This document shows, one piece after another, positions 45,798-58,559 of a DNA stretch of 64,000 bases (its first letter is position 1; the number at the start of each line of letters is the position of its first letter). The position numbers were made by a program, and so were the translations under genes. The notes under the pieces were generated by a model that was not told where the DNA came from, made no database searches, and saw only the letters and a list, made by a program, of their open reading frames with translations. The DNA lies in assembly GCA_000004985.1 (NCBI GenBank), contig GG738845.1; one strand, given 5' to 3'. The DNA is from Naegleria gruberi. Taxonomy: Eukaryota.

Positions 45798-48700
45798 ATG
45801 AGTCAACAACAAGATGCTCCACAAACTTCATCTCTTCCGAACACAACAACAACAGAGGCTGGAGCATCAACAACAACATCGGAACAACAAATCAACTCAA
45901 TAACATCAACACCAAATATATCATTTGAAAGTAATTTATTTGCTAATCTTCCGAATCATGATCCCACATTGAAACGTACATGTTGTTCTTTCAATGATAC
46001 TACAATTGCATTCGGTACGGAACAGGGGCATATTTACTTTCATGATAGATATACACTAGAATTAAAATTAACAATTACACATCAAGAGTTGGGTCAGAAG
46101 AGAAATTTTACTTTACCAATAACAAGAGTTTCTTTAACACCTAACTTGATCACCAATGATAAAAGGAGAGCTTTTATTGGAGCTGTAGATTCAGCATTTA
46201 TTGTATATATATTTGAAATTGAATTGACAGTCCAACAAATTGGAAATGCTAATGTTTGTTTTCCTAAAGTGGCCAGATTGCTAAACTCTCATTCACAACA
46301 CAAATTCGAAGTCACTTGTATTGCATGGGCTAATGATTTTCTCAAACTTTTTACTGGTGACACTTCAGGATTTGTTTTCGAGTTTAAAAATCAGAAAAAA
46401 TCACTCCTTTCTATTGGAAATTCTACACAAATTTTGAAAGAGGATGGTGCAGGAATTGTACAGCTATCTGTTTCTGGTGATCATTTACTCGTCTCTTCAA
46501 CAAAGCGTTCCATAGATGTTAATCTTTCAGCACAGCAGTATAAGGGTATTGGAACAAAACCAAGAGATGGTGTTTTTGGCGCATGCTTCCAATATGCTCT
46601 CAAAAAGAAAGAAGAAAACTCAGTTTCCACTCAAGATCAGTACACCATTTACGCATTTTCAGCCAGACCTGGAAGAAGAATTTGGTGTTCAGATATCACT
46701 ACTTGTAAGGTATTGTCAACCCTCAAATTTCCATCTGTGTCACAAGTCAAAGATCTCAAATTTACTCATCTTCTCAGTGTAGGTCCATATCTTGCCTCAT
46801 ACAATGAAGAAACAGTTACTATTTTGGATATTGTCAAATTGAAAATTTTGGATGTGAAATATGGAATAGGAACAATCAAACATGCATCTAGCTTTGGATT
46901 TTCCATGTTTATTGTACATGTTGATGAAAATTCCAATCATATTGTCAGTAGAATAGACTTACAACTTCCAGAAAATGAGAAACAATTCTTTATCAACCAA
47001 ATCCTACCAAAAGTTAGTAGACCAATTACAACCAATCCACAACAACCTGTGCAACCTCCACAACAGCCTCAACAAACTTCACAACCAGTCCAACAACCAG
47101 CACAGAAAAAGGACGAAAATCCACTTCAGCTCATTACTGGTTTGTTAAAAAGAAATGATACCCCTCCAGTGCCTCTTGTTAAAACTCCAAGTAATCCAAT
47201 TTTAATCAACTCTCAAAAAGAAACAGCCTCTTCTAGTGGTAATAGTACGCCAACAACCCCTGCCTCCATTTCTACCTCTTCTATACCTAAAGTTATTGCT
47301 ACAAGTAACAACACTCCAAAAGAAGAAAAGTTATTAGATTTTGAGAATGTAAAGATTGTTTCCACACCACCACCAAAATCTTCTTCCGCATTCTCTTTTT
47401 CATTACCTTCTGTTCAGCTCAAAGACAAATTTTCTGATTTGACAAGTGAAATGATGAAAAAAGCTGCAGCTGTTCTACCTAAACAAGATAAGGAACAACC
47501 AACAGCCAAACCACAAGAAGATATTAAGCCAACTGTAGAAGAGCCAAAACAACCCCAAAAAGATGAAAGTTGGTCTGCCCCAATGGTAGTCCAACCAAAG
47601 AAGATTAAAAAGAAGAAAAAGAAGCCTGAGCGACTCATTAGTTTTGATGGAAGTACCGCTGAACCAACACTCTTAATTGAAGAGAAGAAACCAAAAAAGA
47701 CCAGCTCTAAAAGAAGAACAAAATCTAAGGACTTTGATCAACTCTCACAAGTTTCAGATGATACCAGTAAAACTGGCTCCCTTGGATCAGATAATGAGGA
47801 TAGTGATAACACAGAAGATACTATTACAAGTTCTTCCAGCTTAGTTGATCCTTCACCAATTACTGAAAATTTACCAGCCATGGTTACTGAAGGTGACAAA
47901 TCACCTGGTACACCTTTAGAGAAGGAAGAACCTGTTCCTGAGCAAAAAACTGAACTTACAGAAAGTACTGAAGTTACTAACGTTGCACCAATTATTGAGG
48001 AAATCAAATCTAACGAAGAAATTCCTTATGATGACAACAGTAAGGATACTTCAGTAGCAATTCTTGAAATAATTGATACCGTAACAACAATAGAAGAAGA
48101 AACAATAGATCATATTCAACCTTCTGTTACTGACTCAATTCAAGTAATTGAGCCTGCGGAAAATGAACAAGAAATTCCAGTTGAGTCTGTAGTAAGTGGA
48201 GATGAATCAACAACAAAACAAGTCTCACCAGAAACTACAGAAGAAATTGAAACTATTTCTGAACAAGAAAAACAAGATTTGGAAAAGAAACAAGAGGAGG
48301 AGAGAAGAGAATTGCAACGTATCGAAGATGAAAACAAAAAAGCTGAACAAGAGAGAATTAGAATTGAGGAAGAAAAACTTAAAGAACAAGAAAGGATTGC
48401 AGAGGAAAAAAGAAAAGAAGAAGAACGACTTGCGGAAGAGAGAAGAAAAGAGCAAGAACGTACAGCAGAAGAAAAGAGAAAAAAGGAAGAGGAAGAAGAA
48501 AAGAGAATTGCAGAAGAGAGAAGAAAGAAGGAACTTGAAAGGCTCGAAGAAGAGAGGAAGAGAAAAGAGCAAGAGGAAAAACAAAGGCTCGAAGAGGAAA
48601 AAAGAAAGGAACAAGAAAGGCTTGAGGAAGAAAGAAAGAGAAAGGAACAGGAAAGAATTGAAGAAGAAAAAAGAAAGAGAGAAGAATTAATCAAAAAGAA

Positions 48701-50345
48701 ACATGCTTCCTTCTTTGAACTTATTGTGGAACCTATGGATAGCCTGTTTGAACAATTGGCAAACTTTTTAAGTGTGGGAGATGGAATTTGGTGTCCTAAA
48801 TTTACTTCCACACTCAAGACATGGTTTGACGATTTTGTAAAGTTAGTAGAGACAGAGCAAAAAGAAAAACATGACTATTGCATAATATCTGAAATGATTT
48901 CTCAAGAATTGAATGAAGAACAACAAAGCCAACTTTCCAAACTGCTCAACTTTAGATTTGAGAGATTATTTGCTGAGGAAACTATTGAAAAACCTTACAT
49001 TTCTCGCGTACTCTCCATATTACATGAATTTTTATTCATGTCTCAATGCTGTACACTCTGTAATTCTCATAACTGTGCTGAGTGCATTAACACTATTTTT
49101 GAAATTGAAGACCAACATAACTACCTCTCAGAAGAAAGAAAGAATATTGATAGACTTTTCGAACAATTCAAGGTAAAGAACTCTATGGAAATTAGAGACC
49201 AAATATTCAAAGATATCGACTCTTTAAAGAATGATTACCCCTCTATTCCATTGAGATATACACTAGCACTATCTAAACTTCCTGGAGGACATGAGCTTTG
49301 TGCTCTACTTTATCCTTATATCCAAGTGTGGAATTACAATAATGCAATTGGTACTGAAAGCAATCATTCAAAGTATATCCAATATCTAATGAGTGTTTAC
49401 AAGCTTAACCATTCTAGCCATATTAGTCATCAATTTATGGAACACTTTGTTATCAAATTGGTTACCAATTTTGAGAGAAATGTCCACGAATCACTGATTA
49501 TCAACATTATTGATGAGGCTCAAAGTAAGCTTAATTGCTTTAGTGACACTCACTTTTTAGAGAAGGAATTGAAAAAGACTCCCTCAACTCAACACTGCCT
49601 CCACTATTTTTATGAAAAGTTTGATAAGATATCAGAGTTAATAGATTTGATTGTCAGAGGTGATAGCTTGAATAATCTTGCAACCTTTATGGAAAAACAT
49701 TACGAAAATCAACAAAATTGGATTACACTAATGAATTGCATTGAAAATAGTCCAAAATCAATATGTACAAAAGAGCAAGCTGTATTTTTAATGTGTAAAT
49801 GTCTGGGATCTTTGCAAACTCTAAATATTTTGCAAGATGCCTCTGTAGAAAGTTGTCTACACGATGTTGATCCAATAATTTACACCAAGATTTGTCAATT
49901 AGCCAGAGCAGAAACAGAACAAAGCAAGCTAAGACATAACATGATAGAAATCATGGACAGCTACATGTGGTCAGAAAAGGATGAGTGCATTGCTCCACAA
50001 ATAAGGTCAATTTTATCCTTCCAAACTGACATTCCACCTTCCCTCTTCAGTTCCATTAATACACCTGAAGAGTCGTTCCCTTACATGGCTTCATTCTTCA
50101 AATTAGACAATTCCAAGTCCTCACTCAATGAATTCCAAACAGAGCTTCCAAGATTCACAGAAGACTGTGGATCAAACTGGGGATCTCAGATAAGAGTTGG
50201 CAAAACAGCCAGATGCTTCTGTTGCAGATTACCTCTCACAGAACGAGTTGGTGGTGATGTATTGGTATTCCCATGTGGACATTGTTATCATCGTTCTTGC
50301 AATCCTCTCGAAGTTTGTACTCACAACGGATGTAGAGATGCATAA
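45798..50345 (+). CDS. large WD40/beta-propeller protein with a long E/R/K charged repeat region and a C-terminal RING-H2-like finger (Vps8/Vps41-class architecture)
   Basis: N-terminal beta-propeller-like repeats. About 160 aa of EERRKEQER-type repeats (48.2-48.7 kb). The C-terminus CFCCRLPLTERVGGDVLVFPCGHCYHRSC matches the C-x2-C...F-x-C-G-H-x-Y-H-x2-C RING-H2 pattern. Confidence 0.55.
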   Translation: MSQQQDAPQTSSLPNTTTTEAGASTTTSEQQINSITSTPNISFESNLFANLPNHDPTLKRTCCSFNDTTIAFGTEQGHIYFHDRYTLELKLTITHQELGQKRNFTLPITRVSLTPNLITNDKRRAFIGAVDSAFIVYIFEIELTVQQIGNANVCFPKVARLLNSHSQHKFEVTCIAWANDFLKLFTGDTSGFVFEFKNQKKSLLSIGNSTQILKEDGAGIVQLSVSGDHLLVSSTKRSIDVNLSAQQYKGIGTKPRDGVFGACFQYALKKKEENSVSTQDQYTIYAFSARPGRRIWCSDITTCKVLSTLKFPSVSQVKDLKFTHLLSVGPYLASYNEETVTILDIVKLKILDVKYGIGTIKHASSFGFSMFIVHVDENSNHIVSRIDLQLPENEKQFFINQILPKVSRPITTNPQQPVQPPQQPQQTSQPVQQPAQKKDENPLQLITGLLKRNDTPPVPLVKTPSNPILINSQKETASSSGNSTPTTPASISTSSIPKVIATSNNTPKEEKLLDFENVKIVSTPPPKSSSAFSFSLPSVQLKDKFSDLTSEMMKKAAAVLPKQDKEQPTAKPQEDIKPTVEEPKQPQKDESWSAPMVVQPKKIKKKKKKPERLISFDGSTAEPTLLIEEKKPKKTSSKRRTKSKDFDQLSQVSDDTSKTGSLGSDNEDSDNTEDTITSSSSLVDPSPITENLPAMVTEGDKSPGTPLEKEEPVPEQKTELTESTEVTNVAPIIEEIKSNEEIPYDDNSKDTSVAILEIIDTVTTIEEETIDHIQPSVTDSIQVIEPAENEQEIPVESVVSGDESTTKQVSPETTEEIETISEQEKQDLEKKQEEERRELQRIEDENKKAEQERIRIEEEKLKEQERIAEEKRKEEERLAEERRKEQERTAEEKRKKEEEEEKRIAEERRKKELERLEEERKRKEQEEKQRLEEEKRKEQERLEEERKRKEQERIEEEKRKREELIKKKHASFFELIVEPMDSLFEQLANFLSVGDGIWCPKFTSTLKTWFDDFVKLVETEQKEKHDYCIISEMISQELNEEQQSQLSKLLNFRFERLFAEETIEKPYISRVLSILHEFLFMSQCCTLCNSHNCAECINTIFEIEDQHNYLSEERKNIDRLFEQFKVKNSMEIRDQIFKDIDSLKNDYPSIPLRYTLALSKLPGGHELCALLYPYIQVWNYNNAIGTESNHSKYIQYLMSVYKLNHSSHISHQFMEHFVIKLVTNFERNVHESLIINIIDEAQSKLNCFSDTHFLEKELKKTPSTQHCLHYFYEKFDKISELIDLIVRGDSLNNLATFMEKHYENQQNWITLMNCIENSPKSICTKEQAVFLMCKCLGSLQTLNILQDASVESCLHDVDPIIYTKICQLARAETEQSKLRHNMIEIMDSYMWSEKDECIAPQIRSILSFQTDIPPSLFSSINTPEESFPYMASFFKLDNSKSSLNEFQTELPRFTEDCGSNWGSQIRVGKTARCFCCRLPLTERVGGDVLVFPCGHCYHRSCNPLEVCTHNGCRDA
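48190..48700 (+). repeat. purine-rich (GAA/AAG/AGA) low-complexity coding repeat encoding E/R/K heptad-like repeats
   Basis: It produces spurious overlapping ORFs in several frames and on both strands in the ORF track (48140..48817-, 48196..48690+, 48225..48614-). Confidence 0.5.
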
Positions 50346-50669
50346 AATACATTGTTTTTTTATGTGGACTTTTCTGACAATAGATTCTACCAATTCAAAA
50401 TGTAATCTTCATGTTGTAAAATTCTCATATGTTTACGAACTAGATATTTTCCAACAGTGCCTTTTTGGACAAATACAGCCCTATTATCATGCGCCCACAC
50501 CACTACTGTACACACATAACTTGTTGCATTCAAACTAACTGTTCAGAGTTTTCAATAGTGGGGTTTAACCCTCAATCAGCAGAACAGAAAAACACACTAA
50601 GAGTTGTTTGCGATGATATTTATTTAAACACTCGCCCCATGAGCGCATTGAGTTACCATTCAAAAAAAA

Positions 50670-52898
50670 ATGTCTGCATCCAAGACAGCTATTGTTTCAA
50701 CCTTAGTGGTTGTTATGATGGTTTTGATCCAAAGTGCCTTGTCTCTTAAGAATTCTGCCCACAAGAGAAGTGAAGATGACTGGATTCCGGGTAGGTTTTA
50801 TTGTTGTTCTTGTTGCGGATATTTATTCTGTAATTTTTTATATTAAGGCTACAATTACATGTTGAGCGGTTTCGACGTTAGAAGTATGCAAAGTTCTTCT
50901 AACAGCATGGATCCTGCTAAGAATGTTGTAAATTTAATTTTCAGACCAACCACTGAGTTTGGAACTTTGTACCGTATGCCAGTTTCTAAGGAAAAGTTTA
51001 AGGTACCAGATGCCATTGAAGTTTATGATTATGTTACTACAAACGTTACTAAAACATCAGACACTATGGAATCAATGTCTGAATCATTGAAGTATGAAGC
51101 TTCAAGCTATTCATTCTCATTCTCTGTCAACGTTGGTGTTGTCGGTGTTAGTGCTGGTTTGAACACATCTTTTGGCCACATTCACCAAACCTTTGCTCAA
51201 AGCAATCTCTTTATGGCCACTGGTTCTATTAGAGGTACTATTTATCAAGCTACCCTTGAACCACCAACATTCTTGGAACAAAATCCATACTTTAAGAGAG
51301 CTTTGGCTGCCATTCCAAACACTCCAACTGCTGCCGATTTGGACAAGATTAATACCTTGATCAAATACTTTGGTGTTTCATATGTTTCAAAGGGTGTTTT
51401 CGGTGGTAAATTCAATTTGATCACTAAGGTTTCTGATAAGATCCTCAAGTCCTATGACAAGTCTTGGTGTATTACTCAATTGTCCTTGACCTTCAGTTAT
51501 GGCGCTTATTCATTTGGTATGTCTGGATTCAAAAATAAGACTGATATCCATGTCAATAATGATTTTGCCAATAACGCCAAGACTGACATGTTCTTCGTTG
51601 GTGGTGACTTTACTTTGCAAAGTAACGAAACTCTTAAGGAATGGTACCAATCAATTCCAGGCCAACCATCCCTTATCGGAGGTGAATTCAATTTGATTTC
51701 TGATTTGGTTGATAACAATGCTGTAAAGAAGAAGAATTTGGAAGCCATCTTGAAGAACTATGTTGCCACTGGTAGAGTTGAAATTCCTGCTTCCATCAAG
51801 AAGATTGCTGTTCCTCATCCACTCAAGAGAAATGTCCTCCTTGATCTTTCTCGTATTCCAGGTGCTGCCTTGATTGGTTCTGGTTTCGATACCTTTACGT
51901 AAGTTGTTTTTTGTTTAAATCTCAACTAATTAACGTTAAATAGTCTCACTCCAAGATTGAGTCTTTTCAAGCAAGCTCCAGATTCCAAGGCTACTACTTG
52001 GACTAATCCAATCTATAAGGATATTCAATTCGCTGTTCCAGGAAACGTCCTCGTCAGAAATAATGCTGAATCATACTATGCTAACAGCACTTTTGTTGCT
52101 TTGACCAAGCAAGAATACGAATATCAATATAGAGAACACTCCTCTAAATCTGGCATGTTCGGTTTGAGTCACCATTCTAGAGATGTTTTCATTTATAACT
52201 ATCGTTATGAATTTGAAGATTCTTACCAATTGAATACTTTCAGAAGAATTTCTTGGTATGATTTGTCATTGGATCCTCTCTGTTTGTTCGATCTTAATAA
52301 CCGTCTTGAACCATTTGCTAAGAGAATGATTGATTCTCTCCCAGCTACTGGTGGTGATCAAAAAGAAGTCAGAGATAAGTACAAGAAGTTTATCGATTAC
52401 TATGGTACTGCTGTTGTCACCAAGACAACTATGGGTGGTGGTATCTTCTTCAAGGTTAACTTTAAGAAGGATTTGACCAAGACTTTGAGCATTCATGAAA
52501 TCCACGAACAATCTGGATGGTCATTCCTCCACATTTTCGGTGAAAAGTCAACTCACGATTTCTATCTTAAGAAGTTGTCTCAACAGTTCATTCAACACTC
52601 GTCTGTTGAATTCAACACTCAAGGTGGTTCTTGGACTCCAGAAATTAACGGTGTTAGACCAACTGGTCCAAATGCTCTTAACATTATTGATTCTCCAGAA
52701 GGTTACATGAGTTGGGAAGATTATGCTAACTCTATCAAGTATGACCCATACCCAGTCAACTATGAATTGCAACCAATTCACACTATCTTTGCTGATAAGG
52801 CCAAGCAAGGTATTATGAAGTCTGTTCTTGATGAATATCTCCAAGAAAAGTACAATCAAAAGCCAGCTTCATTCTCCAGAGCCGGTAAGGAATACTAA
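50670..52898 (+). CDS. secreted MACPF (membrane-attack-complex/perforin) domain protein; 3 exons (about 50670..50790, 50848..51898, 51944..52898)
   Basis: Exon 1 encodes the signal peptide MSASKTAIVSTLVVVMMVLIQSALSL (its frame is too short for the ORF track). G|GTAGGT..ATTAAG|GC joins it to MLSGFDVRS.... The MACPF signature is YFGVSYVSKGVFGGKF (Y-G-T-H-x7-GG type). AC|GTAAGT..AAATAG|T joins the second track ORF in frame (...GFDTF-T-LTPRLSLFKQAP...). Confidence 0.7.
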
Positions 52899-52923
52899 AT
52901 AAATATAATTGTTGTTTATTCAA

Positions 52924-55070
52924 TTAAAGCTTATCAAAATCTTGTATTTCTAATATCAATTTTTTCATTTCCTCAATAATGTCTTGACTGGAATTGTGCT
53001 TGTTGCATCCATTCTTCAAAAGAAAATTAAGGAGATGAATCTTTTCTTCCAAAGTTACCCGTATAGAGGTCAATCTATCATAGAACAAGGTGGTGAGATT
53101 AAAGGTAGATTTAACCTTTTTCTTCTCTAGTTGATTATTTACAGTAACCATCAATTTCGAATTAGGTGTAGAATTAATTAAGAGAGGATACCAAAAGGAT
53201 GATTTGACTGCGTTTCTATTGAGTAAAATTGGATGAGCCAGAGTTGTTTGAAAAGGCTGTCTCAGAAATTGTGAATAAATAAAAGGTACCTTTGTTTTAA
53301 ATTTAGGAATTGAGTTGATAGTTTTCATGTGTAACCTATCCTCACGATAAGTATTGAAAGACTGCATAAAAAGTCAAAATTCTCATCTCTACCAACATTT
53401 TCACGTAAAATTTCCTCAACACTCTTATGATACATATTTTGAATGATAGCTTGAATTCCTTTCCTATTGAGCTCCAAATGTGAATCTCCAGAACAGTTAT
53501 CAATAATATGACAAAGTAAGTAATCCAACTTTGCTCCTCTAATGAATAAATCACCACTACCACTTTTACATTCTTTCAAAATAGAATAATATTCTGGTGA
53601 TAGTGAAATATTCCTTGATATTTCTGATACTATTGTTGGTGCGGTAATATTACAATGATTGGAATGGGATCTGGTTGCTAGTAGAATAATAATAAACGTT
53701 GGAGAAAATGTAAAAGGCACCTGGTCGGTAATAGATGGTACCTTAGTCTGAAGAGATTCGAAAACACGATCCAACAATCCAACTTTCATAAAACTAGTTT
53801 GCTCAGCTCTGTAAAGATCATAAAGGAGGGCTATTGTCATCCAATTTGTCAAGTTGATAGGGCATTTTCCAATACTATTTGATTTCAAAATATTATCCAT
53901 CTTCACCAACAGTGACTCTAGATTTTCTTTCTCTTCAGGCGTAAAAACCGAGTCAACTATTTCAGGAGTAATCTCTCTAATTGATATTTCATCCTCACTA
54001 GAACGAAATATTCTATCTCTAAAATAATCCAATTGCCTGAGTAAATCCTTAAACAAATCAGTACACTCCCCAAAACAATAGCTCACCAAACAAGTCATTA
54101 GAGAAAACCAATCAGAATCATTGTTAGTGTATGGAATGTTATCGCGTATTTGTACCATCCATTCCTCAAATTTTGAATTCTTATAAACTGAATCAGTTAA
54201 TAATGACTGTTGAATAGCATTACTATCCAAATTTGGAATATGTTTTTCTAGCAGTTTACAGAAATAATCAACTTGCATTATTGACTCGTCACTAGAAAGA
54301 AAGCAATCAATGTCACCATTCTCCAATTTACGTATTCTCCAACTTTTCTCCCTCAATGAATCAGTATTATCCTCCATTATCATTGGAGGTTCAGGAATAG
54401 ACAATGTTCTCTCATCTTCATCTCCATTACTCATTAGAATATTAATCTTCCTCTCCAATGGTGCCCAACTATATGAAGAGTAGGTCGTTTTCCTATTTTC
54501 TCTCTGTTCATTCCAAATATTGAATACAGTTTCAATACATTCAGGAAGTGACTGTTGAGTGGTGAATAAATTTAAAACTGAATCGCTTGTTGAACCACTC
54601 AACAAATCAACATCATCCACCAACAAACTGATAATTTTCGGAAAGTTATACTGTCTAATATTGGGATATGAAAAAGTTGCTCTAAAATCATGTAAACACA
54701 TTCCATCATTAATTTTCATAGCCATCAATGGATTGAATAATAAATTCAAATGAAATGATAGACAATTATTCGCTTGTAATGATGATGATTCAATTGAAAC
54801 TCTATCATTATTAATTAAATTATAATTTAATATTATATCGAGAATACACTCTTGCTCTGACAAGGCTTGTTGAGAGGAGGGAAATAACAAATTGAATTTA
54901 GCAAATGATTTGTTCCAATCGGAGACTTGATTTCTTGTTGTTATATTGTTGTTTTCCGAGTAGAGAGAAATAAGCCACTCTACTAATTCATTGTGTACTA
55001 GATGATTGAATAATTGTTGCCCAGAGGAATCATGTTTCATGTTTTTAAATTTTTTTGTTAAGAAATGCAT
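52924..55070 (-). CDS. hypothetical protein (about 690 aa); 2 exons with an about 56-nt intron near 53289..53344
   Basis: Overlapping track ORFs 53325..55070 and 52924..53367 are in different frames. ATC|GTGAGG...ACAAAG|GTA joins them (...SLSILI-VPFIYSQFL...). No family recognised. Confidence 0.45.
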
Positions 55071-56834: not shown

Positions 56835-58559
56835 ATGTTGAGAAAATCACTCACCACTGTATCATCACAAGGCGGAAAAAAGTTGATGTTTGCCAATAGC
56901 AATAAATTGGCTCTGTTCAACAACAATAACATCACTACTTCATCTTCTTCCTTCCATACCGCTTCGCAAAAGTTCGATACAACAAAACCTGCTGCTGCCC
57001 CTATTGCACAACAACAACAACAAAAGGGTAATAATAACAGTGGAAGCGGACAACAAACAAGTGGAGGATCTATGGGTAAAACTGTTGTCATTTCAACACT
57101 CTTGACTGGTGCTCTCGGTGTTGGTTTTGTTCTTTATTTTAATAATTATTTGCAATCACTTGAAAAGAAAAACCAAGAACAAGCTTCATCTATTGAATCA
57201 CAAAAAAAGAAAATTCAAGCTGAAAAACTTGAACAAGATAATGATAAGATTAATTCTATTAACTCTGAATTGGAAGGATTGGAAAAGGCTCACTCTGCTA
57301 AATTGTCAGCCTTGAAGGAAACTTATACCAACAAGATGAATGAATTACAACATCAATTGAATGCTATCAATGAAAAGATTACATCATTAGAAAAGGAAAA
57401 GAATGATCTTTCTGTAACTCTTGAAAAAAATAGAAAGAAACAACTTGAATTGCTCTCCGAAAAGGAAAATTTAATCTCTGAAAAGAAAACTTTGGAAGAT
57501 CAATTAAATAGCTTTAGTAGTTTGAAGGTCAGAAGTACTGATGCCGTTCTCTCTGATATTTTGGGAAGACAAGTTGAAGAAGGTGAAGTCCTCACTGAAG
57601 AAGATAGAGACAAGTTCCTCTCACGTATTCAACGTTTGGAATCTCAAGTTAAGAGAAAGGATAAAATGATTGAACAAATCAAACAAGAAACTGAAGAAAA
57701 TATTCAAAGAATTAAGACTATTAGTCAAGAAAAATTACGTGCTGTTCAATCTGAATCTGAAGAAAGTATTAAGAAATTGGAATCTGAAATGGAATCTGTT
57801 AAAAATGAATATAGTGCTTTAATTGCCAAGGAAAGAGAAACTATTCTTGATGAATTTGAAAAGAAGATGCAAGAACAAGCCCATAGTTTATTAATTGGAT
57901 ATTATGATAGTGTACTTGATAGATCTAAACATGTCCAAGAATTGACAAACAAAGTCTATGCTATGGAAGAAACATTCAAGGTTGCATCTGCTAATTTCTC
58001 AAATAATATTGATTTACAAAACTTGACAGCTGCTGTTTTGGCTTTGCAAGATACTCTTCAAACAAATGCTCCATTCAAGCCAGAAGTTGATACTCTTAAG
58101 AGATTATCAGATAATGATGAATTTTTGAAGGCTGCTTTAGAATCTATTCCAAAATCGATAACAGAATCTGGTGTATTGAAACTTGATGATTTGACATCTA
58201 GATTCAAGATTGTTAAAAAGAAGGCTATCGAGGCATCACTTATACCAGAAGAAACTGGTCTTATGGGTCTCCTCTTGGCCAAGACCTTATCTGTAGGAGT
58301 TGTTGCTGAAGAAGGATTTGTGGATGGTGATTCTTTACCAGCTATTTTATCCAGAGCTGAATTTTATTTAAAGCAAAAGAGATTAACAGATGCTGTCAAT
58401 GAAATCAATAAGGCTTACTGTGTTGCTCCAAAGAATGTCACACAAGTCATTGAAGATTGGGCAACCGAGGCAAGAAATAGACTTTTAGTAGAACAAGTTC
58501 TTGAAACTATGTCATCACATTTGGTCATACAATCACACTCCTTAAAGCAACAAAAATAA
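56835..58559 (+). CDS. MIC60: MICOS complex subunit MIC60 (mitofilin)
   Basis: N-terminal presequence. TM TVVISTLLTGALGVGFVLYF. Long coiled coil. The C-terminal mitofilin domain ...VIEDWATEARNRLLVEQVLETM matches VAQDWLKEARMTLETKQIVEIL. Confidence 0.75.
   Translation: MLRKSLTTVSSQGGKKLMFANSNKLALFNNNNITTSSSSFHTASQKFDTTKPAAAPIAQQQQQKGNNNSGSGQQTSGGSMGKTVVISTLLTGALGVGFVLYFNNYLQSLEKKNQEQASSIESQKKKIQAEKLEQDNDKINSINSELEGLEKAHSAKLSALKETYTNKMNELQHQLNAINEKITSLEKEKNDLSVTLEKNRKKQLELLSEKENLISEKKTLEDQLNSFSSLKVRSTDAVLSDILGRQVEEGEVLTEEDRDKFLSRIQRLESQVKRKDKMIEQIKQETEENIQRIKTISQEKLRAVQSESEESIKKLESEMESVKNEYSALIAKERETILDEFEKKMQEQAHSLLIGYYDSVLDRSKHVQELTNKVYAMEETFKVASANFSNNIDLQNLTAAVLALQDTLQTNAPFKPEVDTLKRLSDNDEFLKAALESIPKSITESGVLKLDDLTSRFKIVKKKAIEASLIPEETGLMGLLLAKTLSVGVVAEEGFVDGDSLPAILSRAEFYLKQKRLTDAVNEINKAYCVAPKNVTQVIEDWATEARNRLLVEQVLETMSSHLVIQSHSLKQQK

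Follow-up and report, generated by a model that had tools for sequence, protein, structure and literature searches.

Gene model and domain layout at the locus

In the 64,000-nucleotide stretch of Naegleria gruberi DNA analysed here (contig GG738845.1 of assembly GCA_000004985.1, called the window below), a three-exon gene on the + strand was found to encode a protein composed of a predicted secretion leader and two complete MACPF (membrane attack complex/perforin) units, one after the other. An initial annotation, made from the nucleotide sequence, had already placed a secreted MACPF/perforin-like pore-forming protein here. The family assignment was borne out, whereas the picture of a single MACPF domain was not, a second complete unit in exon 3 (signature YYGTAVVTKTTMGGG) having been overlooked.

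The region 50400-53300 was read directly for the gene model. Two long + strand open reading frames (ORFs), 50859..51902 (347 amino acids, aa) and 51957..52898 (313 aa), are preceded by a third one, 50670..50846, which at 58 aa lies slightly below a 60-aa cut-off. When the three exons are joined as in Table 1, an in-frame coding sequence of 2127 nt results, encoding 708 aa. The introns are poor in GC (25% in intron 1 and 22% in intron 2, vs 38.5% in the exons) and splicing is required, since either of them, if kept, leads straight into an in-frame stop. The spliced protein is identical, residue for residue, to the GenBank entry EFC50572.1 / XP_002683316.1 / D2UX64 (D2UX64_NAEGR), described as "predicted protein" NAEGRDRAFT_61653 of Naegleria gruberi, and the three-exon reconstruction is therefore the already published JGI gene model.

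Homologous genes give further support to both joins. In the Willaertia magna orthologue the signal peptide and the segment VPGFQYMLSGF lie within one exon, and its single intron is placed elsewhere, near the inter-unit linker. A second homologue (P0002, on a 25%-GC contig of Logan run SRR12245243) is one intronless ORF of 652 codons with the same layout. The three-way alignment of these proteins has no gaps across either junction (...WIPG/YNYMLSGFD... and ...GSGFDTFT/LTPRLSLF..., the slash marking the join), so that both splice joins are supported, and two separate genes, or an exon 1 foreign to the gene, become very unlikely. The proposal that the long ORFs join in frame through a 45-nt GTAAGT intron, and that a short exon below the ORF cut-off is added through a 57-nt GTAGGT intron, thus agrees with the sequence, the published model and the homologues, the last of which carry the upstream segment unsplit; the coordinates and sequence features first given for the locus were all correct. 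It is true that prokaryote-style gene callers reported both long ORFs as separate on a contig of the ENA (see below), which would suit a wrong gene model. We consider it hardly conceivable, as three independent homologues are collinear in leader, N unit and C unit (one of them being a single uninterrupted ORF), the layout is common to about 50 cluster representatives, and both introns have canonical GT..AG ends, low GC and in-frame stops.

Table 1. Features of the tandem MACPF gene NAEGRDRAFT_61653 (positions in the window; a slash marks the candidate cleavage site; TMH, transmembrane hairpin region)
Feature	Position	Strand	Residues	Description and evidence
Exon 1	50670..50790	+		Start codon, signal peptide and first residues W-I-P-G of the N-terminal MACPF unit, the G codon being split by intron 1; matches annotated EFC50572.1; segment contiguous with the next in orthologues
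Predicted cleavable signal peptide	50670..50744	+	1-25	n-region MSASK, h-region TAIVSTLVVVMMVLI, c-region QSALS, candidate cleavage ALS/LK; hydropathy and -3/-1 rule heuristics
N-terminal MACPF unit	50781..51782	+	38-352	Spans intron 1; PF01823 62.3 bits; unit HMM; MACPF fold in AlphaFold model
Intron 1	50791..50847	+		57 nt, GTAGGT...AAG, phase 1; read-through stop at 50844-50846
Exon 2	50848..51898	+		Bulk of the N-terminal MACPF unit, linker and beginning of the C-terminal unit; matches annotated EFC50572.1
N unit TMH1	51051..51206	+	109-160	52 aa; contains SSYSFSFSVNVGVVGVSAG, strict polar/apolar alternation; DSSP of model; alternation kept across 29 homologues
N unit MACPF signature	51366..51413	+	214-229	YFGVSYVSKGVFGGKF; G216 and G226 invariant in 29 homologues
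N unit TMH2	51435..51575	+	237-283	47 aa; contains ITQLSLTFSYGAYSFGMSGF with alternation; DSSP of model
Inter-unit linker	51783..51845	+	353-373	pLDDT < 50 at 361-370; length varies among homologues, gapped in alignment
C-terminal MACPF unit	51846..52862	+	374-697	Spans intron 2; own IPG..GSGFD start; PF01823 57 bits; profile matches C6, perforin, C7, MPEG1
Intron 2	51899..51943	+		45 nt, GTAAGT...TAG, phase 2; read-through gives an immediate stop; ungapped alignment to both homologues at the junction
Exon 3	51944..52898	+		Remainder of the C-terminal MACPF unit, 11-aa tail, stop codon 52896-52898; matches annotated EFC50572.1
C unit TMH1	52101..52220	+	444-483	40 aa; Tyr/Glu/Arg-rich, weak alternation; DSSP of model
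C unit MACPF signature	52398..52442	+	543-557	YYGTAVVTKTTMGGG; G545 and G555 invariant in 29 homologues
C unit TMH2	52467..52598	+	566-609	44 aa; histidine-rich; DSSP of model

The whole protein matched the Pfam family MACPF (PF01823) in two stretches with 110.5 bits (E 1.7e-31), far above the cut-off of 21.5. When the halves were scanned separately each was recognized by itself, the N half with 62.3 bits (residues 143-345) and the C half with 57.0 bits, and no family besides MACPF was found in the 708-aa protein up to E 1. A hidden Markov model (HMM) of the unit extends the N-terminal match to residues 39-352. The two units, together with the leader and the linker of 21 aa, take up the entire length of the protein and only a tail of 11 residues follows the second.

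Both units begin with the motif (I/V)PG..G.GFD and each carries its own signature. The MACPF signature, [YW]-G-[TS]-H-[FY]-x6-G-G, is found where the bent central sheet begins. Its form is F-G-V-S-Y-x6-G-G in the N unit (YFGVSYVSKGVFGG) and Y-G-T-A-V-x6-G-G in the C unit (YYGTAVVTKTTMGG), with the canonical x6 spacing ahead of GG and the G...GG pattern kept in both. The signature reported initially, YFGVSYVSKGVFGGKF, is the one of the N unit. Among 29 tandem homologues G216, G226, G545, G555 and G618 never vary, and G292 and G619 are nearly invariant.

Direct comparison of the halves by BLAST found no more than a stretch of 65 residues about the signature, at 29% identity. The hhalign alignment of the two units was end to end, covering 295 of about 320 columns with a probability of 100%, E 3e-41 and 18% identity, which shows duplication of a whole unit; this duplication is ancient. 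In addition, in a comparison of the 29-homologue profile with the PDB, both halves matched solved MACPF proteins (C6, C7, C8α, C8β, C9, perforin-1, MPEG1, TgPLP1, Mpf2Ba1, Plu-MACPF, GNIP1Aa and pleurotolysin B). No second MACPF copy was found by tblastn elsewhere in the window.

The N-terminus of the protein is MSASKTAIVSTLVVVMMVLIQSALSL, as first reported. Its sole strongly hydrophobic segment, according to hydropathy heuristics, is formed by residues 6-20, placed after Lys5 and before a site (ALS/LK) obeying the -3/-1 rule. Neither a second hydrophobic segment nor a C-terminal retention motif was found in the 708 residues, the C-terminus AGKEY not being KDEL-like. The leaders of both close homologues are short and classical, with ALA/E and VKS/V sites, and a leader stands directly ahead of the first MACPF unit in 34 of the 37 family members with complete N-termini. 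These heuristic criteria agree with the signal peptide proposed initially, and the predicted mature mass is about 77 kDa.

The MACPF/CDC fold is built around a bent β-sheet of four strands, with two helical clusters at its flanks, and in MACPF proteins these clusters turn into transmembrane hairpins of about 40-60 aa in which polar and apolar residues alternate. An AlphaFold2 run with the 29 tandem homologues gave a model with a pLDDT (predicted local distance difference test) of 79.3 and a pTM (predicted template modelling score) of 0.48, so that the single units are well modelled and their mutual arrangement has low confidence; a run with a 3-sequence alignment gave a pLDDT of only 34.7 and was discarded. 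Each modelled unit has long strands flanking two helical clusters. By Foldseek the model was matched to PDB entries with a probability of 1.00 over about 340 columns, the best being Mpf2Ba1 (E 2.7e-16) and perforin (E 1.5e-14), along with GNIP1Aa, Plu-MACPF, C8α, MPEG1 and TgPLP1. This comparison and the secondary structure place the model in the MACPF/CDC fold, and the HMM, the signature, the invariant glycines and the predicted fold together establish membership of the family.

The clusters of the N unit are rich in Ser, Gly and Thr and show strict alternation (SSYSFSFSVNVGVVGVS; ITQLSLTFSYGAYSFGMSGF), and the family keeps this 9-0-9-0 hydrophobic pattern in column after column. Of the two halves the C unit is the better conserved, its identity to Willaertia being 60% vs 46% for the N unit. 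Since, in addition, the hinge glycines of both are invariant in 29/29 homologues, neither unit appears to be decaying.

Homologues, genomic surroundings and known systems

Willaertia magna ABK040_010785 (P0001) is the nearest homologue, sharing 50% identity across 96% of the length; a second one, P0002 (652 aa), shows 31% identity. Word-indexed protein searches with the single sequence and with 3-sequence and 29-sequence profiles returned only the Willaertia protein, one Logan protein and the exon-2 ORF of the gene itself. By contrast with these, an exhaustive HMMER search of 1.84 billion cluster representatives gave 321 relatives at E <= 1e-3 and 151 at E <= 1e-10. The architecture of 150 listed relatives, P0001, P0002 and the query was then scored with HMMs of both units. 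Among these listed matches and the three added proteins, 49 were collinear N-C, 9 were N-C-C (mostly a split C-unit match), 51 carried an N unit only, 22 a C unit only and 10 were N-N. Some of the single-unit entries are certainly exon fragments, as is the case for the ENA entries of NAEGRDRAFT_61653 itself, and others are complete secreted-type proteins with a stand-alone N-type or C-type unit. Named members among the matches listed are two Carpediemonas membranifera proteins annotated "MAC/Perforin domain" and one EukProt entry, the remainder being metagenomic.

Relatives of the N-N type with 630-700 aa (P0024, P0053, P0082, P0094, P0101, P0105 and P0115 are listed) have both units nearer the N-type profile, and relatives of more than 1000 aa carry two or three MACPF units far apart. 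MACPF multiplication seems to have occurred more than once in protists.

The searches, which covered protein sets, yielded no protein from N. fowleri or N. lovaniensis, although the word-indexed ones did return the more distant Willaertia at 50%; the gene may be missing from the pathogenic lineage. Motif-seeded scans, weak in that only two peptide patterns were used, gave no confirmed relative in bacterial or archaeal genomes, viral contigs or JGI metagenome contigs, and lend no support, within the reach of so weak a scan, to a recent transfer from bacteria or viruses.

The neighbouring ORFs in the window are exact matches to NAEGRDRAFT_61652, NAEGRDRAFT_61657 and NAEGRDRAFT_61632, all from the same 1.56-Mb scaffold. 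The upstream neighbour NAEGRDRAFT_61652 (45798-50345, + strand, 1515 aa) has an HPS5-type β-propeller (PF23756, E 8.6e-33), a long E/K-rich coiled-coil-like middle and a Cys/His-rich C-terminus, and from these features it may be a BLOC-2-like factor for lysosome-related organelles. A functional meaning of this neighbour for the MACPF gene was set aside, since eukaryotic gene neighbourhood is no evidence of shared function and the adjacency is probably coincidental. Downstream, NAEGRDRAFT_61657 (56835-58559, + strand) is a Mitofilin/Mic60 homologue (PF09731, E 1.6e-39). Between them lies a convergent gene on the - strand (52924-55070). Its ORFs, 53325..55070 (581 aa) and 52924..53367 (147 aa), may be linked through an intron, and no Pfam match was obtained for them. 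The gene's end is only 26 nt from the MACPF stop codon and the 3' untranslated regions must therefore overlap or be extremely short.

On a 9083-bp contig of a separate ENA assembly there are ORFs identical to exon 2 and exon 3, and the upstream protein is present there as a variant shorter by one residue (1514 aa). Public data are thus indicated to include a second N. gruberi-like genome that is nearly identical.

At the P0002 locus (L001 5001-10170, SRR12245243) the tandem MACPF gene is followed by two paralogous genes on the same strand, encoding proteins of 512 and 498 aa with leaders, weak MACPF matches and a Cys-rich C-terminal region. This three-gene MACPF cluster has no counterpart in the N. 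gruberi window. At the Willaertia locus (L002 6001-8101, JBEGDK010000059.1) the flanking genes encode a carbonic anhydrase, an F-box-like protein and CDC48, and no family among them is shared with the N. gruberi locus. Neither synteny nor intron positions are conserved between N. gruberi and Willaertia.

The proteins most similar in layout are Willaertia ABK040_010785 and Carpediemonas KAG9394743 and KAG9395592, which like the N. gruberi protein consist of a leader, an N-type MACPF, a short linker and a C-type MACPF, with no other domain. Both units are present in the Carpediemonas proteins, at 29% identity. All three are uncharacterised entries and the Willaertia gene differs from that of N. 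gruberi in the placement of its intron and in the unsplit leader exon.

The nearest functional parallel is the complement pair C8α/C8β, whose MACPF domains, different from one another, lie side by side and enter the β-barrel pore already associated, as one assembly unit (PMC3021121). The likeness lies in the two non-identical MACPF units, and both C8 chains match the N. gruberi protein in sequence and fold. However, C8 is formed by two chains with TSP1, LDLRA and EGF accessory domains and needs C5b-7, whereas the N. gruberi units are fused in one chain that has none of these domains. The side-by-side geometry, known for C8, is only proposed by analogy for the N. gruberi units.

Multi-MACPF polypeptides are also predicted for Theileria annulata (TA18285) and for Babesia bovis (BBOV_III000410), and the suggestion has been made that with them a pore takes fewer monomers (PMC7522308). 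These perforin-like proteins (PLPs) share with the N. gruberi protein the presence of more than one MACPF domain in one secreted chain, but have three predicted MACPF domains and about 140 kDa, compared with two units here. Apicomplexan PLPs are further characterised by an apicomplexan-specific C-terminal β-rich domain and by conserved cysteine pairs in the MACPF domain (PMC7522308). The N. gruberi protein has two cysteines in total (C248 and C504) and its second unit lies too close to the C-terminus for a β-rich domain; it is therefore not an apicomplexan-type PLP.

The best structural matches to the model, Mpf2Ba1, perforin-1, GNIP1Aa and Plu-MACPF (E 2.7e-16 to 2.2e-13), are single MACPF proteins with a C-terminal membrane-binding domain, unlike the N. 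gruberi protein, and show 16-18% identity to it. Accessory domains of the canonical effectors perforin, C6-C9, MPEG1 and Mpf2Ba1, namely C2, EGF, TSP1, LDLRA, MABP/P2 and β-prism, were all absent from the Pfam scan up to E 1. The tandem, accessory-free architecture is an uncharacterised variant with predicted precedents, a less common double layout of modest novelty.

Perforin-like proteins of amoeboflagellates, to which the initial annotation referred as already described, were not found in the literature. The known pore formers of Naegleria are the saposin-like naegleriapores A and B and a membrane-bound 66-kDa activity, N-PFP, which is uncloned (PMC8469197). They belong to the same genus and share with the MACPF protein a proposed membrane-permeabilising role, but naegleriapores are a small α-helical family unrelated to it, and neither SapB nor Thiol_cytolysin was matched in the Pfam scan of the protein. 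A link to N. fowleri N-PFP was rejected as unsupported, given the masses (about 77 vs 66 kDa) and the lack of an N. fowleri homologue in the protein searches. In the library covered by the search we found no paper on NAEGRDRAFT_61653 under any accession, none pairing Naegleria with MACPF and nothing specific for tandem MACPF; the literature on Naegleria with perforin or membrane attack complex was restricted to host immunity.

Proposed mode of action and its alternatives

In the general MACPF/CDC mechanism monomers assemble into a ring and their helical clusters refold to β-hairpins, forming a β-barrel pore (PMC7522308). From its sequence features we are inclined to suggest that the N. gruberi protein is a secreted or phagosomal β-barrel pore former in which every chain contributes two ring positions, and this is probably, though by no means certainly, its role. 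The protein would enter the secretory pathway, lose its leader and be released extracellularly, or into phagosomes or lysosome-like granules. It would then bind the target membrane and oligomerise into a ring, whereupon the helical clusters would unfurl to β-hairpins and build the barrel. With the N and C units joined covalently, a single chain would fill two positions next to each other in the ring, as a built-in heterodimer comparable to C8α/C8β, and half as many chains would be needed. The N unit, with its long, Ser/Gly-rich and strictly alternating hairpin regions, would be the main part to pierce the membrane. The C unit, whose regions are shorter, charged, aromatic and rich in His, would probably serve in the upper barrel, in control or regulation of assembly, in targeting or in membrane contact. 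As no accessory domain exists, the tasks of completing the ring and of regulating or targeting assembly are assigned to this unit.

N. gruberi is a bacterivorous amoeba, and the likely site of action is therefore the phagosome or the immediate surroundings. The role of the protein is likely to be the killing or lysing of prey or competitors and not mammalian virulence, as far as sequence and distribution suggest.

Several observations weigh against this proposal. Both units have another residue in place of the signature His, Ser in the N unit and Ala in the C unit, and no recognisable membrane-targeting domain (C2, EGF, TSP1, APCβ or MABP) was found in the Pfam scan. In the C unit the clusters are of lesser length, more charged and more aromatic (EYEYQYREH...VFIYNYRYEFED); they alternate only in part and are poorly amphipathic. 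Adjacent ring positions, moreover, bear on precisely that arrangement of the units which the model gives with low confidence. The hydrophobic stretch at the N-terminus, counted with its flanks, has about 20 residues (T6-L26) and a KD19 maximum of 2.3, a length of h-region compatible with a membrane anchor. Finally, astrotactins, Torso-like, BRINPs and plant CAD1 are MACPF proteins for which we know of no lytic activity.

A less likely possibility is that only the N unit forms the pore, the C unit being a diverged, non-inserting MACPF that replaces the accessory domain as a membrane- or receptor-binding, pH-sensing or autoinhibitory module, and ring stoichiometry being set by the N units alone. 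The TMH regions of the C unit are indeed shorter (40 and 44 vs 52 and 47 aa), more charged and without regular alternation, no other targeting domain is present, and the 84 residues of these TMH regions contain 8 of the 14 histidines of the protein (Fisher p 5e-5), a clustering that could point to pH-triggered unfolding or could be an accident of composition. Nevertheless the C unit is better conserved than its partner and retains the invariant hinge glycines and the signature spacing, and Willaertia shares no more than 3 of these 8 histidines. Stand-alone secreted C-type proteins also exist, so that a C-type unit can function by itself. A non-lytic protein, with a secreted or luminal role in signalling, adhesion, development (e.g. 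encystment or the amoeba-to-flagellate transition) or membrane remodelling, appears unlikely. Loss of the signature His and absence of any membrane-binding domain from the Pfam scan would suit it, astrotactin-2 is among the fold matches, and non-lytic MACPF proteins are well documented (review PMC5483515). But the N-unit hairpin regions keep, across the family, the strict amphipathic alternation that inserting β-hairpins should show, active toxins and perforin lead the fold matches, and the family is widespread in free-living phagotrophic protists, with the secretion leader already mentioned.

The leader itself could be read otherwise, as an uncleaved signal anchor that would make it a type II membrane protein, displayed at the surface of the amoeba or in the phagosome membrane and reminiscent of the activity of N. 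fowleri N-PFP, which is described as membrane-bound (PMC8469197). The length of the hydrophobic stretch allows this, but the -3/-1 site that follows the h-region, the short classical leaders of the orthologues, and the same discrepancy in mass and lack of an N. fowleri homologue noted above make it quite improbable.

The proposed pore former can be taken one step further, although we regard this extension as rather doubtful. The fused units may be an obligate heterodimeric block in which the N unit spans the membrane and the C unit, conserved yet polar and His-rich, is a built-in, pH-triggered partner for assembly and targeting that takes the place of the accessory domains found in all MACPF proteins studied. 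The stand-alone N-type and C-type proteins would then be unfused two-component versions, and phagotrophic protists would possess a binary MACPF system for killing prey in acidifying phagosomes.

Significance

The gene is already in GenBank, a routine Pfam scan detects its domain, its function is only predicted, and the practical weight of the finding is modest. To our knowledge, however, MACPF proteins of free-living excavate protists are essentially unstudied. A protein made of two MACPF units only, with conservation reaching from Heterolobosea to Carpediemonas, would offer a compact model of hetero-oligomeric pore assembly, such as that of the complement membrane attack complex. It would also serve as a model for membrane recognition without an accessory domain and for amoebal killing of ingested prey. 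Absence from N. fowleri protein sets, if true, argues for a feeding or competition tool and not for a virulence factor. Moreover, if the doubtful binary-system interpretation were true, the fusion would be a 'Rosetta stone' for a widespread two-component MACPF system in phagotrophic protists.

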